A stretch of 64,000 nt of DNA from an uncultured Prevotellaceae bacterium (GTDB lineage Bacteria > Bacteroidota > Bacteroidia > Bacteroidales > Bacteroidaceae): positions 23,523 through 87,522 of the forward strand of contig CACWNV010000020.1 of the NCBI GenBank assembly GCA_902762325.1. The letters run 5' to 3'. Positions 5,898 to 55,219 of the stretch are shown in pieces (within the stretch, counting starts at the first letter, position 1; each line of letters begins with the position of its first letter). A model generated the notes under the pieces. That model did no database searches and was not told the origin of the DNA. It worked only from the letters and a program-made list of their open reading frames with translations. The position numbers and the translations under genes were made by a program.

Positions 5898-6155
5898 ATG
5901 GAAGAAATGGTTTTAGAATGCCCAACATTGGTAACTGATATGAAGAAGAAAGTGAAGGATATTCAGATGGCAATATCCTGGCGTGATTTCGCCAACACTT
6001 ATTTTCAGCGTTCATCCTCATGGTTCTATCACAAGATGGACGGTATAGACGGAAATGGTGGTGTAGGCGGATTCAGCAAAGAAGAAGCCGAGCAGATGCG
6101 TGGTGCTTTGATAGACTTATCTAATCGCATTCGCAGGGCTGCAGAGAATATTTAG
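5898..6155 (+). CDS. Small protein resembling the DUF5053-type proteins of Bacteroidales mobile/phage regions
   Basis: 85 aa; ISWRDFANTYFQRSSSWFYHKMDGIDGNGGVGGFSKEEAEQMRGALIDLSNRIRRAAENI matches my memory of that family (needs an HMM check). Confidence 0.5.
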   Translation: MEEMVLECPTLVTDMKKKVKDIQMAISWRDFANTYFQRSSSWFYHKMDGIDGNGGVGGFSKEEAEQMRGALIDLSNRIRRAAENI

Positions 6156-6276
6156 GTGAGACCTTCTTTTGTGTTATTTTTGTCAATTATTCTTGTGAGA
6201 TGGATTACAGAATAGAGTTTGATGAAAAATGGGATAGATTATCTGTGTATAATAACATCAAACCGTAAGTTGAAAT

Positions 6277-6680
6277 ATTGTCAAGAAATATTCGAATTTT
6301 GAGCCCAAAAAACAGGGGGTATTGCTCACGAAAGAGTCATTCGGTCGAAAAAACGCCATTTTTTGATGTTTTTCGTAATTCACTGATTGACATATAGTTA
6401 CACGGATTTACAACTGTAAACGGGCGGTTTACAAAAAATGAATTTGCCAAAGGTATCGTTTTGGTGCGCGAAAGGTAAGGTTTCGTCGTGTGAAAGGTTA
6501 TGTTTGAGGCGGTGAAACATGGTCTTTGGCGCGGTCAAAGGTAAGGTATGGGGGTGAGAAACCTAAGCTTTCGCAAAATCAGGAATGAAGAATGATGAGC
6601 GAAGAAGTGGTTTTTACAGATTTTAACTTCTCTTTCATCACTTTTCGCCGACAAGTTTTTGTCAATATATTTGGTAAAAT
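6277..6680 (+). repeat. Copy 1 of a ~400-bp interspersed non-coding element
   Basis: Aligns by eye along its whole length with 32021-32425 and 53361-53765 (shared blocks TATTCGAATTTT, GTTACACGG, TTTGCCAAAGGTA, GTTTCGTCGTGTGAAAGGT, ATGTTTGAGGCG, GAATGAAG, TTTTGTCAA). Confidence 0.85.
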
Positions 6681-6719
6681 AAAAAAAGCCGAATGACAAG
6701 ATTCGGCTTTTCCTTTTCA
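6675..6719. terminator. Bidirectional hairpin terminator downstream of the 6763..7749 gene
   Basis: AAGCCGAAT / ATTCGGCTT stem; A-run on the left (a U-run for the minus-strand transcript) and TTTTCCTTTTC on the right. Confidence 0.6.
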
Positions 6720-6762
6720 CCACCCTTGCGGCAGTACGATATTCTCTACATCGTGCGCCTGT

Positions 6763-32020: not shown

Positions 32021-32425
32021 ATTGTCAAGATTTATTCGAATTTTAGCCCCAAATTAAGGCCATCTGAACGAACGAAAAGTTTCTCGGTTGAAAATAACGC
32101 GATTTTTGAGGCTTTTTGTAAAGCGTTGATTGGCAGACGGTTACACGGATGTTAATCTGTAATCGGTTGGTTTGCATAAAATGGATTTGCCAAAGGTATC
32201 GTTTCGCTGCGCCAAAGACCATGTTTCGTCGTGTGAAAGGTCATGTTTGAGGCGGTGAAACATGGTCTTTGGTGCGCTCAAAGCTTAGGTTTGGCGGTGC
32301 GAAAGCTGAGCTTTCCCAAAATTAGGAATGAAGTATGAAGAGTGAAGAATCATGTTTTACACAATTTAACATCTCTTTCACCACTTTTTCCCAACAAGTT
32401 TTTGTCAAGATTATTGACGGTAATT
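32021..32425 (+). repeat. Copy 2 of the ~400-bp interspersed non-coding element (upstream of mraZ)
   Basis: Same block order and orientation as 6277-6680 and 53361-53765; contains a perfect 16-bp hairpin stem, 32212-32227 / 32257-32272. Confidence 0.85.
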
Positions 32426-50813: not shown

Positions 50814-52784
50814 ATGGCAGAAAATCAGATTAAAGAGAATAATTATTCAGCCAGTAACATTCAGGTGCTCGAAGGTCTTGAGGCCGTTCGCAAACGCCCT
50901 GCAATGTATATTGGTGACATCAGTGAGAAAGGCCTGCATCATCTTGTCAATGAGACGGTTGATAACTCCATCGACGAGGCAATGGCAGGGTTCTGCAAGA
51001 ACATCGAAGTAACTATCAACGAAGATAATTCCATAACAGTACAGGATGACGGACGCGGCATCCCTGTCGACGAACACGAGAAGATGCACAAGAGTGCATT
51101 GGAAGTCGTCATGACTGTGCTCCATGCCGGAGGTAAGTTCGATAAGGGCTCCTACAAGGTGAGTGGCGGACTCCACGGCGTAGGTGTCAGCTGTGTGAAC
51201 GCCCTTTCAGCCCACATGATTTCACAGGTCTACCGCGACGGAAAGATCTATCAGCAGGAATATGAAAAGGGAAAACCGCTCTATCCCGTCAAGGTGATTG
51301 GCGAGACCACCCAACGCGGTACACGCCAGCAGTTCTGGCCCGACCCCACCGTCTTCACCACCACCGTTTACCAGTGGGACATCATCGCACGCCGCATGCG
51401 TGAGCTGGCATATCTGAACGCCGGCATCACCATCAAGCTCACTGACCTGCGCAAGGATGCAGAGGGAAAGATTAAGCAGGTGACGTTCCATGCCAAGGAA
51501 GGTCTGAAGGAATTCGTGCGCTACGTGGACCGTCACCGCACTCATCTCTTCGACGACGTCATCTATCTGAAGACCGAGAAGCAAGGCATTCCCATCGAAG
51601 TGGCTGTGATGTACAACACCGACTACTCCGAGAACATCCATTCGTACGTGAACAATATCAACACGATAGAAGGCGGTACTCACCTGACGGGATTCCGTAT
51701 CGCGCTCACCCGCACGCTGAAGGCGTATGCCGACTCAGAGCCGACCATATCCAAACAGATTGAGAAGTCGAAGATTGAGATTGCCGGAGAGGATTTCCGC
51801 GAGGGACTGACAGCCGTTATCTCCATCAAGGTGGCCGAACCGCAGTTTGAAGGACAGACCAAGACCAAGCTGGGTAACTCCGAGGTGACCGGTGCCGTAC
51901 AACAGGCCGTGGGTGAAGCGCTCTCCTATTATCTGGAGGAACACCCGAAGGAGGCTAAGCTGATCTGTGAGAAGGTGGTACTGGCTGCCACTGCTCGTAT
52001 CGCCGCACGTAAGGCACGTGAGAGCGTACAGCGCAAGAACCCGATGAGCGGAGGCGGACTGCCCGGTAAGCTGGCTGACTGCTCCAACAAGGATCCCAAG
52101 GAATGTGAGATCTTCCTCGTCGAGGGTGACTCTGCAGGTGGCTCAGCTAAACAGGGACGCGACCGCTATACACAGGCCATCCTTCCACTGAGGGGTAAGA
52201 TTCTCAACGTAGAGAAAGTGCAATGGCACCGTGTGTTCGAGGCTGAATCGGTGATGAACATCATCCAGTCTATCGGTGTCCGCTTCGGCGTTGACGGAGA
52301 AGCCGACAGAGAGGCTAACATCGACAAGCTGCGCTACGACAAGATCATCATCATGACCGACGCCGATGTCGATGGTTCTCACATCGACACACTGATCATG
52401 ACGCTCTTCTTCCGCTTCATGCCTCGCGTCATCGAGGAAGGTCACCTCTACATCGCCACGCCACCACTCTACAAGTGTACGTATAAGAAGGTGAGCGAGT
52501 ACTGCTACACGGAACAGCAGCGTCAGGCTTTCATCGACAAGTACGTGAATGGCAACGATGAAGACAAGGCGTTACACACGCAGCGATACAAAGGTCTGGG
52601 AGAAATGAATCCCGAACAGCTTTGGGAGACGACAATGGATCCAAAGACCCGTCTGCTGAAACAGGTAACCATTGAGAATGCAGCACAGGCTGACGAGATC
52701 TTCTCGATGCTCATGGGCGACGATGTGGAGCCACGTCGCGAATTCATTGAGCAGAACGCCACCTATGCGAACATCGATGCTTAA
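50814..52784 (+). CDS. gyrB: DNA gyrase subunit B
   Basis: 656 aa; LEAVRKRPAMYIG, GLHGVG, PGKLADC, EGDSAGG, IMTDADVDGSHI. Confidence 0.96.
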   Translation: MAENQIKENNYSASNIQVLEGLEAVRKRPAMYIGDISEKGLHHLVNETVDNSIDEAMAGFCKNIEVTINEDNSITVQDDGRGIPVDEHEKMHKSALEVVMTVLHAGGKFDKGSYKVSGGLHGVGVSCVNALSAHMISQVYRDGKIYQQEYEKGKPLYPVKVIGETTQRGTRQQFWPDPTVFTTTVYQWDIIARRMRELAYLNAGITIKLTDLRKDAEGKIKQVTFHAKEGLKEFVRYVDRHRTHLFDDVIYLKTEKQGIPIEVAVMYNTDYSENIHSYVNNINTIEGGTHLTGFRIALTRTLKAYADSEPTISKQIEKSKIEIAGEDFREGLTAVISIKVAEPQFEGQTKTKLGNSEVTGAVQQAVGEALSYYLEEHPKEAKLICEKVVLAATARIAARKARESVQRKNPMSGGGLPGKLADCSNKDPKECEIFLVEGDSAGGSAKQGRDRYTQAILPLRGKILNVEKVQWHRVFEAESVMNIIQSIGVRFGVDGEADREANIDKLRYDKIIIMTDADVDGSHIDTLIMTLFFRFMPRVIEEGHLYIATPPLYKCTYKKVSEYCYTEQQRQAFIDKYVNGNDEDKALHTQRYKGLGEMNPEQLWETTMDPKTRLLKQVTIENAAQADEIFSMLMGDDVEPRREFIEQNATYANIDA

Positions 52785-52803: not shown

Positions 52804-52841
52804 AAGGCCTGTAGGACAAATCCTGCAGGCCTTTTCTTTTT
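52804..52841 (+). terminator. gyrB terminator
   Basis: AAGGCCTGTAGGA / TCCTGCAGGCCTT 13-bp stem followed by TTCTTTTT. Confidence 0.75.
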
Positions 52842-52878
52842 AATGCCGTGGGAATTAGACGTTAGATTTATGTTGTAC

Positions 52879-53300
52879 CGCAACGGAAGAAATAACGTAG
52901 GCATTATATTTGGGGTTGTGCCGTAACGGAAGAAATGCCAGAGGCATTAGACAATGGTAGCCAGCCATACAGAAACGCCCTTGGGTGTTTCGAAATGGCT
53001 GGTATTGGATTGCCCCCAATAATATAAGCCTGCCCTTGGGTAGGCGACATGAGCGGCTCTTGTCCCTTACCTAGCGGCAAGGTTCCGGATGTGTGGTCCA
53101 TCTTTACCAGCCATTTCGCCGTACCCATAGGCACGGCTGTATGGCTGGCTACCTTTGTCTGATGCCTATCGGCATCCTTTCCTTACTAACTGCCCCTTGT
53201 CTGATGCCTCTGGCATCCTCTTTGCAAACGGCCTAACTGCATCCTCTCCTTGCTAACCGCCCCCTGTATGCTGCCAACGGCATCTTCTTTACTGACTATC
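52879..53300. repeat. Nested inverted-repeat complex built from hairpin-containing units (~33-45 nt; conserved 20-nt core)
   Basis: Left arm 52935-53004 vs reverse complement of 53105-53176: GGTAGCCAGCCATACAG 17/17, CGAAATGGCTGGTA 14/14. The unit core TTGTCTRATGCC-N3/4-GGCAT is present 2x on the left (as its complement) and 3x on the right. Confidence 0.8.
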
Positions 53301-53360
53301 ACTATCTGATTGCAAATGCACGGCTCATTGCAATTGAATTGCGGATTCGGCATCGCGACA

Positions 53361-53765
53361 ATTTGTAAAGGAATATTCGAATTTTGACCCAAAAAAACAG
53401 GGGGTGCTGATCACGAAAGGGTCATTCGGTCGAAAAAACGTCGTTTTTTGACGTTTTTGGTAATTCGTTGACTGACAGACGGTTACACGGTTATTTATCT
53501 GTAATCTAACGGTTTACAAAATACATATTTGCCAAAGGTAAGGTTTCGCTGCGCGAAAGGTTATGTTTCGTCGTGTGAAAGGTGATGTTTGAGGCGATGA
53601 AACATAACCTTTGGTGCGGTCAAAGCTAAGCTTTCGCGATGCGAGAGCTATGCTCTCGCAAAATGAAGAATGAAGAGTGAAGAGTGAAGAATCGATTTTT
53701 ACAAAAATTAACCTCTATTTCATCACTTTTCCCCGACAAACTTTTGTCAACATAATTGACAACGA
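53361..53765 (+). repeat. Copy 3 of the ~400-bp interspersed non-coding element
   Basis: Same block order and orientation as copies 1 and 2; 14-bp hairpin stem 53556-53569 / 53599-53612. Confidence 0.85.
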
Positions 53766-53836: not shown

Positions 53837-55219
53837 TTACCTCAGAATGAACTTCCTGCCGTCACGGATTATTATCTGGCTCTTTCTTGCTTCTTTTATC
53901 TGTCGGCCAGATAAATCGTATTTCTTATCTGACAGTTGGGATTCATCTGTTGTCACATGTTTGACACCTAACATTTCCTTGCATACCTCAGGGATATCCC
54001 GATAATATAGCGTATCACCGTTCAAGGTCACAGATGTCAGGAAACCATATTTCCCCATGATAGGGCATACTTCGAATAAGTCCTGGTAGGTAGAACCGAT
54101 GCCCTCTATCCATGTGACATCTTTATATCCCCAGTGCCATCCGTCACGGTCGCTGTCCCATTGAAAGACATGCACCTTGTAATCCTGGCCATGATGAACT
54201 TCACCCTCACGAATCTCCACTAATTTCAAGTGGTATCTATCATTGTCAACCGTGAAAGTATCGCCAACCTGATGGGAGAAGTCATATAACAGTTGGTGAA
54301 ACCATTGGTCGGTGGTGTTGTAAACATTATCGACCAGATACACTTTCCCTTCTTCCTCATATAGTCCACCCAAGAAACAAATGGGTTCGTAGGGCACGTG
54401 ATAGTCATAATGGTCGCCATATAGCTTCTTGCATTCCTTTCCACCCATGATGGTGTCTCCCTGAATGAAAAGGGAAAAGAAGTGCATATACGCTGGAGGT
54501 GCTGTCCTGAGGTAAGTCCACACCTTCCCGTCTTCTACAAACTTCACCCGCTCCCCCTCTTTTGCGAGTGCCTGCAGTGCCTCGAAATCCTCAGAGCTGA
54601 AAAGCGTCTGTCCGTTCTCTGCATAGCCGACGAAGTCAACACGACCTCCCGTCTTCCCCTGACTGACAGGATTGAACGGATTCGGACCGCCAATACCCTC
54701 TACCCACGGCTCATCGAAATAACTGCCGTTAGACACCCATGTCCTGACAATCATTACCTTGCGGTAACAACCGGCGAGAAACAGCGTATCGACGGACTGC
54801 ACCTTTACGGTTGTTCCGTTTACCTTTCCCTCACTTCCCGCTACAAGGCTGATGTCGTATAGCAGTGCCACACTGTTGTTGGAGGAGGACACCATATATA
54901 CTTTCCCGTCTTCTTCATAGAGTGCACCCCTATAGAAACCCACCTCATGTTGAGGATAAATGGCTGACGGGAAGTTCTCCTGATCAGTGGTCATATACAG
55001 CTTCATGCATTTCTTGTCATTCAGCAGGGTGTCACCTGACAGGAAGTAGTGGTCATTGTAATAGAACGAGTTCTCATATACCCAACGGTGTATGTCCCAT
55101 GATTTCCCCTCTGAAACAAAAGGAAGAGATGTATAAGATTCGAATGAGCGGTAAGGCTCCTGAGCTTCAGCTATCTGTAATCCCAGCGTCAAAAACAAGA
55201 AAGTAAATAAATGTCTCAT
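53837..55219 (-). CDS. Secreted protein with an internal domain duplication and a short T9SS-CTD-like tail
   Basis: Signal peptide ...LQIAEAQ; two homologous halves (GALYEEDGKVYMV...LLYDIS...WVEGIGG / GGLYEEEGKVYLV...LLYDFS...WIEGIGS); tail KKYDLSGRQIK...IIIRDGRKFILR. Confidence 0.6.
   Translation of the reverse strand: MRHLFTFLFLTLGLQIAEAQEPYRSFESYTSLPFVSEGKSWDIHRWVYENSFYYNDHYFLSGDTLLNDKKCMKLYMTTDQENFPSAIYPQHEVGFYRGALYEEDGKVYMVSSSNNSVALLYDISLVAGSEGKVNGTTVKVQSVDTLFLAGCYRKVMIVRTWVSNGSYFDEPWVEGIGGPNPFNPVSQGKTGGRVDFVGYAENGQTLFSSEDFEALQALAKEGERVKFVEDGKVWTYLRTAPPAYMHFFSLFIQGDTIMGGKECKKLYGDHYDYHVPYEPICFLGGLYEEEGKVYLVDNVYNTTDQWFHQLLYDFSHQVGDTFTVDNDRYHLKLVEIREGEVHHGQDYKVHVFQWDSDRDGWHWGYKDVTWIEGIGSTYQDLFEVCPIMGKYGFLTSVTLNGDTLYYRDIPEVCKEMLGVKHVTTDESQLSDKKYDLSGRQIKEARKSQIIIRDGRKFILR

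Follow-up and report, generated by a model that had tools for sequence, protein, structure and literature searches.

A hairpin cluster behind gyrB in a Prevotellaceae bacterium, probably a gene-less repeat served by a resident Y1 transposase

Results

The gyrB locus and its inverted repeat

The DNA analysed here is a stretch of 64,000 nucleotides (nt) from an uncultured Prevotellaceae bacterium, called the window in the following, and the subject of this paper is a complex of nested inverted repeats that lies in it behind gyrB, together with a family of Y1 transposase genes that probably serves such repeats. The gene gyrB occupies 50814-52784 on the + strand (a call made from the Pfam domains DNA_gyraseB, Toprim and HATPase_c), and the repeat region lies between its stop codon and the 3' end of a convergent open reading frame (ORF) of 460 amino acids (aa) at 53837-55219 on the − strand. 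Each of the two convergent genes has its own terminator-like hairpin, that on the gyrB side (52804-52833) being a strong intrinsic one with a T-run and the other lying at 53815-53774. The neighbours are gyrB, the 460-aa ORF, a GH95 glycosidase and an AraC-type regulator.

A repeat search gives the arms of the main inverted repeat as 52923-53004 and 53105-53186, each of 82 nt, 76% complementary and separated by 100 nt, in agreement with the initial annotation of this DNA, which had described a nested inverted repeat with a core of about 100 nt. Folding of 52860-53310 (451 nt) gives −201 kcal/mol on the + strand versus −134 ± 6.6 for shuffled sequences (z = −10.2), while on the − strand z = −8.9. 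The two perfect complementary runs reported before were both located: GGTAGCCAGCCATACAG occurs exactly twice, at 52956-52972 (+) and 53137-53153 (−), two or more matches being reached in only 1 of 100 shuffles, and CGAAATGGCTGGTA lies at 52991-53004 with its complement at 53105-53118, as read off the sequence. Each of the two arms also folds back on itself as a hairpin (52961-53002 and 53107-53148). The search also recovered the small hairpin units repeated on the left and on the right, which turn out to be a part of a conserved family and not noise: the unit TTGTCTGATGCC-N4-GGCAT at 53155-53175, its N3 variant at 53197-53216, the inverted partner of the latter at 52935-52957, matching at about 21 of 23 positions (91%), and degenerate copies at 52872-52906 and 53264-53300.

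The repeat region is single-copy within the window. The two ORFs drawn across it (52904-53134 and 53186-53392, both on the − strand) are mechanical ones without a Pfam match and are therefore treated as spurious, as had been supposed from their lack of coding character. Scans for tRNA and tmRNA gave nothing near the repeat region, the element was unmatched in the viral contigs and plasmids searched, and Rfam (Rfam 15), searched with the window and with a richer strain version of the region, gave nothing at the gathering score and nothing credible at E <= 10. The idea of a replication origin with iterons was rejected, because the GC skew does not turn at the repeat region.

Six hairpins in mirror-image halves

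The element core is 241 nt long (52935-53175) and the full composite about 470 nt (52842-53310). The core is a doublet of six hairpins, three in each half. Read 5' to 3' on its own strand, the general half-unit has the order P1, linker, GTAG, P2, spacer, P3, GAyA, where P1 is ATGCC-N3/4-GGCAT, the linker after it has 9-10 nt, P2 consists of CCAGCCAT, an internal loop ACA/GAA, an 8-bp inner stem, a 4-nt loop and ATGGCTGG, and P3, which follows a spacer of about 25 nt, is GCCTGCC-N4-GGTAGGC with GAyA after it.

In the window the innermost left unit (52915-52956, +) carries GTTGTGCCGTAACGGAAGAA, the left P1 as ATGCC AGA GGCAT (52935-52947) and the linker TAGACAATG. It is followed by the left hairpin at 52957-53002 (+), which resembles the repetitive extragenic palindromes (REPs), with the GTAG foot at 52957-52960 and two stems that a conserved 3x3 internal loop separates, the outer CCAGCCAT/ATGGCTGG and an inner one of 8 bp that contains a G·T wobble and has the tip AAACGCC-CTTG-GGTGTTT, and then by the left core hairpin P3 at 53028-53049 (+), which reads GCCTGCC-CTTG-GGTAGGC, contains a G·T wobble and is followed by GACA. 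The centre of symmetry is at 53050-53060 (TGAGCGGCTCT), assigned to neither strand; this is the site at which full-length relatives carry a Y1 gene, between ...GGTAGGCGAyA and TrTCGCCTACC.... Beyond it lie the right P3 at 53061-53082 (−), a mirror of the left P3 that pairs well, by G·T, on the − strand and is mismatched (A·C) on the + strand; the right REP-like hairpin at 53107-53152 (−), with its GTAG foot on the − strand (CTAC on the + strand at 53149-53152) and a tip, CCGTGCC-TATG-GGTACGG on the − strand, unlike that of the left arm; and, at 53153-53175 (−), the right linker (CTTTGTCTG on the + strand) with the right P1, ATGCC TATC GGCAT (53162-53175).

Covariation and strand asymmetry

In an alignment of 38 half-units, the T, A and G of the GTAG foot are invariant and its first G is conserved in at least 90%; the foot stands directly 5' of the 8-bp stem CCAGCCAT/ATGGCTGG, and this outer stem is invariant. 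In total 98.5% of the cells are paired and 11 pairs have changed on both sides (131 cells), a degree of pairing that 0 of 500 shuffles reach and that compares with 19-40% in slid controls. The inner P2 stem contributes five covarying pairs, with G·T in 31 of the 38 half-units, and P3 contributes two, with G·T in 37 of the 38. In an alignment of 50 whole doublets, 93.3% of the cells are paired with 27 compensatory pairs (again 0 of 500 shuffles), and the P1 stem is 100% paired, four of its five pairs being compensatory (ATGCC/GGCAT to GCCCC/GGGGC). The folding and covariation that had been recommended as a check on the initial annotation are thus strongly positive for the local hairpins.

When the 50 doublets are read on one strand, the left-half hairpins keep their G·T pairs, whereas in the right half the mirror wobble positions are A·C on the + strand and are unpaired there in 46/50 and 31/50 copies; the right P3 pair 147-157, for example, is unpaired on the + strand in 46 of the 50 copies. 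Since the wobble sites switch strand between the halves, each half is well-formed on its own strand, the + strand for the left half and the − strand for the right half. This is expected of a substrate consisting of single-stranded DNA from either strand and unexpected of a single transcript.

The left and right linkers covary at six pairs in the 50 doublets, which fits either an end-to-end pairing or one protein specificity shared by both ends. By contrast, pairing between the left-arm and right-arm tips is found in 65% of the cells over the 50 copies, below the shuffled mean of 68.6%, so that conservation does not extend to a continuous stem of more than 70 bp. It is therefore the local structure of the hairpins that is conserved and not the continuous inter-arm stem; the very long RNA stem that had been offered as an alternative fold is not supported, with the local hairpins paired at 93-98% and the wobbles switching strand.

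A dispersed repeat family in Prevotellaceae

The arm-hairpin pattern CCAGCCATNYMG-N14-24-CKRNATGGCTGG was scanned over species-representative genomes other than that of the window's own species; the counts are lower bounds. Among the matches listed there are more than 104 stretches, nearly all in Prevotella, Prevotellaceae or Bacteroidales metagenome-assembled genomes (MAGs), many of them from the rumen, with at least 16 loci in one single MAG and at least 11 in another; the few matches in Pseudomonas and other taxa are probably chance or unrelated. A 23-mer search of metagenome contigs gave 66 contigs, most of them with doublets of 190-199 nt. The window core is 69-77% identical to the family loci across species over about 250 nt, and in the multiple alignment the similarity begins at the left ATGCC-N3/4-GGCAT and ends at the mirror-image right hairpin.

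Three classes of GTAG-to-CTAC distance can be told apart at the genome loci: about 48 nt for a single 'double-foot' hairpin, 185-199 nt for the doublets and about 655 nt for the gene-carrying form; in the window doublet the distance is 195 nt. The pairs with GTAG outward and less than 260 nt apart at these loci number 35, namely 10 single double-foot hairpins (27-49 nt) and 25 doublets (140-194 nt). Only 18 of the 124 hairpins found in 78 loci lie within stop-to-stop ORFs of at least 150 aa, the other 106/124 lying outside. As judged from these alignments and positions, the core belongs to a dispersed, mostly intergenic repeat family of Prevotellaceae, and the search for further copies that the initial annotation called for has thereby been answered.

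It is noted that an insertion of about 33 nt (ACTTTCCCTCGCT..CGCGAACAGTGACCGTTGG) is present in the right-arm hairpin, just after CCAGCCATTT, in two species, namely in contig L004 (6293-6330) and in L031 of Prevotella sp. UBA6994.

A Y1 transposase gene at the centre of full-length relatives

In contig L087 an ORF of 152 aa with a Y1_Tnp domain (Pfam PF01797, E = 1.4e-28) lies between two doublets, and its protein passes the NCBIfam model transpos_IS200 with 72.4 bits at a cut-off of 55. A tblastn search with this protein gave homologues in L086, L038 and L158. In L086 and L038 the order is ...P1-GTAG-P2-P3(GGTAGGCGATA)-[ORF]-(TATCGCCTACC)P3'-P2'-CTAC-P1', with the gene exactly at the centre of the doublet, while in L087 and L158 the gene stands beside complete doublets and not inside one. 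Inverted flanks are also found around the genes at L195/L197 (protein P0003), L117/L119 (P0027), L121 (P0037), L124 (P0044) and L198 (P0039); seven distinct relatives have a Y1/HUH gene of 150-160 aa at the centre of a palindromic element. The flank hairpins are lineage-specific: those of P0003 have the long form as in the window, and the others are short, e.g. CCAGCCACG-TCCT-CGTGGCTGG.

A homologue search with the protein returned 1200 sequences, named 'IS200/IS605 family transposase' or 'REP element-mobilizing transposase RayT', and the motifs DH[VI]H, WQ and Y...Q..HH are present in 118 of 120 homologues. The nearest solved structures are the TnpA proteins of ISDra2 and ISHp608, as weak matches, and the structure of the Escherichia coli TnpA-REP is not among the PDB hits. 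By its sequence the protein fits subclass 1.2 of the TnpA-Y1 transposases of Quentin et al. 2018. In none of the fetched loci does a class-2 REP-associated tyrosine transposase (RAYT) stand next to hairpins; one distant class-2-like ORF, in L077, lies about 3.5 kb from a hairpin and is without hairpin flanks. Moreover, no DDE-type partner was found between matching ends, the Y1 transposase being the only gene found there.

Every gene variant examined sits at one locus in the contigs covered. P0044, P0003, P0039 and P0037 have the same neighbours in every sample, and P0003 and P0027, the Y1 proteins of which are 73% identical, are both encoded downstream of orthologous AraC-type genes (55% identical). 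The fixed neighbours and the orthologous AraC-linked locus indicate that the Y1 gene behaves as a resident, vertically inherited gene and not as a hopping insertion sequence (IS). The gene-less copies outnumber the gene-bearing ones by more than 10:1 among the pattern-derived loci.

Flanking arrays of end units

Around the core, the composite is extended by small units. On the left, the outermost one (52842-52860, +; AATGCCGTGGGAATTAGAC) is a degenerate small-hairpin unit, 79% identical to 52934-52952, and left-array unit 2 (52861-52914, +), in which the small hairpin (ATAACGTAGGCAT, 52892-52904) is decayed, is a 43-nt tandem duplicate of the innermost left unit (52872-52906 versus 52915-52949, 83%). 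On the right, unit 2 (53176-53216, −) is a solo element tip, with the linker CCCCTTGTCTG and the hairpin ATGCC TCT GGCAT (53204-53216) and without a REP hairpin, and units 3-4 (53217-53310, −) are decaying (...GCAAACGGCCTAACTGCATCC..., with the hairpin ATGCTGCCAACGGCAT at 53268-53283). Directly after 53310 (at 53310/53311), a stretch of 28 nt (GCTTCTGGCATCATTTACTATCGGACAT) is deleted in the window only, being present in each of the seven other strains aligned, and its loss takes out most of a fourth small-hairpin unit.

The two sides are of different types. The flank of type A, ...GTTAGATTTaTGTTGTGTCGCAACGGAAGAA-P1-TAGACAATG, is the left side of the window, including left-array unit 2, and that of type B, ...GCGGTTAGCAAGGAAAGGATGCAGTTAGGCCGTTTGCAAAGAGG-P1-CAGACAAAG, is the right side, including right-array units 2 to 4, read on the − strand. 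Flank A or B is present next to 34 of 72 screened doublets, 15 having A on one side and B on the other, and no A-A or B-B pair occurs among the 72. Type B is conserved in the rumen copies, where either arm type faces either flank; this freedom of orientation agrees with the flip of the core seen in strain contig L004, as described below. On this evidence the extra small units are conserved arrays of about 42 nt, solo element tips that form part of the composite of about 470 nt.

Tandem arrays of two or three end units, each consisting of a small hairpin and a GTAG-CCAGC stub, also flank Y1 genes (L117/L119, L086 at 100-230, L038 at 2540-2700). The contigs carrying P0027 are nearly all shorter than 2 kb, which suggests that the end-unit arrays break assemblies.

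Variation among strains with identical GyrB

The organism is a Prevotella/Segatella, the names in its GyrB cluster including Prevotella sp. and Segatella salivae. We compared 10 contigs with an identical GyrB protein, in which the spacer from gyrB to the next gene measures about 1.07-1.69 kb. The next gene, the convergent 460-aa ORF (53837-55219, −), is present in all strains and is without a Pfam family at E <= 0.01. By BLAST and alignment the spacer is composed of modules, namely the element (E), a GC-rich module of about 260 nt (G), a module with an ORF of 118 aa, and the right-hand small units. E alone is found in the window and L004, E-G in L002, E-G-E with a spacing of 592 nt in L003, E-G with a truncated second copy in L009, ORF-G-E in L001, L006, L007, L008 and L010, and ORF-G without E in L005; the JGI contigs L166 and L183 also represent the gyrB locus, with further arrangements. 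In 6 of the 10 conspecific contigs the 118-aa ORF and the GC-rich module are inserted directly after the unit that corresponds to 52842-52860, according to the strain alignment.

L005 provides an empty site, ...GAAGAA-ATGCCGTAGGCAT-CCTCTTTGC..., to be compared with the filled site of L001, ...GAAGAA-ATGCCGTAGGCAT-TAGACAATGGTAG...CTACCTTTGTCCG-ATGCCTATGGCAT-CCTCTTTGC.... What the filled site has in addition is exactly one doublet and a single copy of the terminal hairpin, a palindrome of 13 nt. Only the 5-nt GGCAT is shared at the junction, which is no flanking duplication of host sequence: the classical target-site duplication that the initial annotation had proposed to look for was not seen at this one clean filled/empty pair.

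Contig L004 carries the 103-nt core flipped between arms that have not turned: compared with the window, its core is 0.60 identical when read forward and 0.89 identical when reversed; the core of all the other gyrB-locus copies has a forward identity of 0.78-0.94.

The accompanying modules are repeats in their own right. The GC-rich one is a structured dispersed repeat of about 260 nt that lies beside doublets (L001 at 6483-6746; L002, L003, L005-L010 and 24 other fetched loci; it is absent from the window) and that is 80-95% identical between gyrB-locus contigs and other metagenome contigs. RNAalifold gives 61 pairs for it, with many one-sided GC/GU changes and one compensatory pair only, and Rfam gives no match to it; a further non-autonomous element and an RNA are both conceivable. 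The 118-aa ORF (L001 at 6103-6459; also L005-L008, L010 and L166) has the gyrB terminator on one side and the GC-rich module on the other in 6 of the 10 conspecific contigs. Neither it nor the other strain-specific ORFs has a Pfam family; its 90% cluster has 33 members, the representative alone being on 92 contigs, and its C-terminus reads, by eye, like a helix-hairpin-helix. A repeat family of its own is the 'element copy' of the initial annotation, which is about 400 nt long, occurs three times in the window (6278-6673, 32022-32418 and 53355-53760; 79-82% identity) and has an internal 50-nt hairpin at 53531-53637. It is found directly beside a doublet also in contigs outside the gyrB locus (L128, L132, L143, L145 and L160), and the two repeat families therefore co-cluster.

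Discussion

We propose that 52842-53310 is probably a REP-like cluster, comparable with the bacterial interspersed mosaic elements (BIMEs), around a doublet at 52935-53175 that resembles the REP doublets forming hairpins (REPINs), and that it is a gene-less form served in trans by a resident Y1 transposase. To our knowledge, REP/REPIN-RAYT systems have been studied almost only in Proteobacteria; they are the classic example of a transposase that has settled in its host together with its non-autonomous repeats. Y1/HUH transposases of the IS200-like kind act on hairpins in single-stranded DNA, and for the BIMEs of E. coli the binding of IHF, gyrase and Pol I is known.

According to the literature, REPs consist of a 5' GT[AG]G foot on an imperfect palindrome and are found alone, as inverted doublets (REPINs) or within mosaic clusters (BIMEs); they stand on both sides of a single Y1 transposase gene (a REPtron), and G·T pairs are common in their stems (PMC3733652, PMC6006769). 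The systems of E. coli (TnpA-REP/YafM), Pseudomonas fluorescens and Cyanobacteria and the family described here are alike in the GTAG-footed imperfect palindrome, in hairpins that are single, in inverted doublets and in clusters, mostly intergenic and multi-copy in relatives, in an apparently low-copy Y1/HUH gene at a fixed locus flanked by inverted hairpins, in the G·T stem pairs, and in the double-foot GTAG...CTAC singles, as in subclass 2.4, for which canonical and 'double-foot' REPs are described and whose phyla include Bacteroidetes (PMC6006769). They are unlike in that the window-family protein, with DH[VI]H, WQ and Y...Q..HH, is outside the RAYT clade (class 2, YIxxNP), and in that the window-family doublet has about 241 nt and six hairpins, with the gene at the symmetry centre and arrays of end units of about 42 nt. 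The system is thus described as one that works like a REPIN/RAYT system, yet it is placed outside the classical clade because its protein is not of class 2. With the enterobacterial BIMEs, the cluster shares the mosaic of palindromes in alternating orientation with other motifs, the position between convergent genes and the variability among strains, while the unit sequences are unrelated.

Subclass 1.2 has been described as having about 148 aa and a low copy number, occurring in Cyanobacteria and Bacteroidetes, being marked 'REP: no' and generally without terminal secondary structures, and being close to the IS200 transposases while not behaving as an insertion sequence (PMC6006769). The proteins found here agree in length (about 150 aa), in the motifs DH[IV]H, WQ and Y---Q--HH, in an apparently low copy number and in phylum; the difference is that here seven members lie between GTAG-footed hairpins that are also found as many gene-less copies. 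Such repeats had thus not been connected with this transposase subclass before. In a 2013 survey of GTAG repeats, none were listed for Bacteroidetes, and within the openly accessible literature, subscription-only papers being outside its coverage, we found nothing specific on REP, RAYT or miniature inverted-repeat transposable elements (MITEs) in Prevotella or copri.

The observed family membership, architecture, covariation, strand asymmetry, association with Y1 genes and residency of these genes, together with the gain or loss, duplication and inversion among strains, may be read together as follows. A resident Y1 transposase, encoded elsewhere in the genome, would recognise the hairpins in single-stranded DNA, for example at the replication fork. 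There each half would fold on its own strand into the terminal 5-bp hairpin, the GTAG-footed two-tier hairpin and the core hairpin. By analogy with the TnpA of IS608 and the TnpA-REP of E. coli, the Y1 enzyme would cut near the foot and rejoin the ends, and in this way doublets and end units of about 42 nt could be copied, moved or deleted, while recombination among inverted and direct copies would flip the core and alter the copy number. It is from such analogies that we infer that the Y1 protein is the catalyst, that the active DNA is single-stranded and how the arrays originated. Alternatively, the local changes may come from slippage or recombination among the many short repeats.

Several points weigh against the reading as a REPIN-like doublet with a resident Y1 transposase. 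The protein fails the NCBIfam model REP_Tyr_transpos (35.6 bits versus a cut-off of 80), and its subclass has no REPs in the published survey (PMC6006769). P0044, the one Y1 locus that plausibly derives from similar human-gut samples (a guess from the accession series), is flanked by the short CCAGCCACG...CGTGGCTGG variant and not by the long variant of the window. The 64-kb window, which is the part of this genome in view, contains one copy only. The covariation of the left and right ends would also follow from both ends matching the specificity of one protein, and the difference between filled and empty site could be a deletion between repeats of 5-13 nt that requires no transposase.

Among the other explanations, the one that survives best, unlikely as we consider it to be, is that the doublet is a miniature, of the MITE or palindrome-associated transposable element (PATE) kind, of an ordinary active IS of the IS200/IS605 family that moves by strand-specific 'peel and paste' and is purely selfish. 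The protein passes the NCBIfam IS200/IS605 model, its nearest solved relatives are the TnpA proteins of ISDra2 and ISHp608, the doublet resembles the full-length element minus its ORF, and the copies are dispersed; the Y1/HUH fold family, the subterminal hairpin ends and the lack of an evident classical target-site duplication are common to both. In IS608 and ISDra2, however, the two end hairpins share one strand and the ends do not form inverted repeats, whereas in the present element the ends mirror each other and the two halves are well-formed on opposite strands. The IS200/IS605 elements also have multiple identical gene-bearing copies, while here each gene variant examined is at one fixed locus with conserved neighbours in all samples, one locus being kept between species with a neighbour 55% identical, and the gene-less copies exceed the gene-bearing ones by more than 10:1. 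The initial annotation had itself compared the region with MITEs, which under the reading preferred here is partly upheld: the non-autonomous nature and the symmetric ends matching those of a transposase-bearing element stand, and neither a DDE partner nor an ordinary target-site duplication was found. Its comparison with Tn7/Mu-like ends is not supported, as the partner is of the Y1/HUH type and not a DDE transposase with multiple duplex binding sites, and the repeated units are solo element tips.

It is very improbable that the element is a structured non-coding RNA gene or an element of the gyrB 3' untranslated region. The predicted fold is very strong, the stems covary with conserved wobbles that are compatible with G·U, and RNA roles have been raised for REPs owing to their G·T pairs (PMC3733652). 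But Rfam gives no match even at E <= 10, the element lies downstream of the strong intrinsic terminator (52804-52833 with its T-run) and between convergent genes, the wobbles of the right half are A·C mismatches on the same strand, the inter-arm stem is 65% paired and thus below the shuffles, and the presence, copy number and core orientation vary among strains with identical GyrB. Least probable of all is an inverton, in which recombination at the arms would turn the 100-nt core over and thereby control a neighbouring gene: the core flipped between unflipped arms in 1 of the 10 conspecific contigs (L004) would agree with it, as would the arm pair of the rumen copies, which varies in its orientation to flanks A and B, but there is no recombinase gene among the neighbours and no promoter-like site in the core by a scan of the sigma-70 type, the element lies between the two terminators of convergent genes, and flipping is the expected by-product of any inverted repeat of 40-80 nt.

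Conclusion

Returning to the REP-like cluster with its resident Y1 transposase, we consider a wider proposal, the chances of which we hold to be about even. It is that Prevotellaceae have a hitherto unrecognised, independently arisen partnership of the REPIN-RAYT kind, in which a class-1, IS200-like Y1 transposase (subclass 1.2, for which no REPs are reported) is kept as a resident host gene that maintains unusually large six-hairpin doublets, and that the doublets, the end arrays and the repeats of 260 nt and 400 nt together form mosaic hot spots of strain-level structural variation in these abundant gut and rumen bacteria. Annotators should take the ORFs drawn across regions of this kind to be spurious. 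If the proposal is true, it would suggest that partnerships between a transposase and its repeats have arisen more than once, an orphan transposase subclass would be assigned its likely substrate, and the assembly-breaking, strain-variable intergenic regions of major gut and rumen bacteria would be explained.

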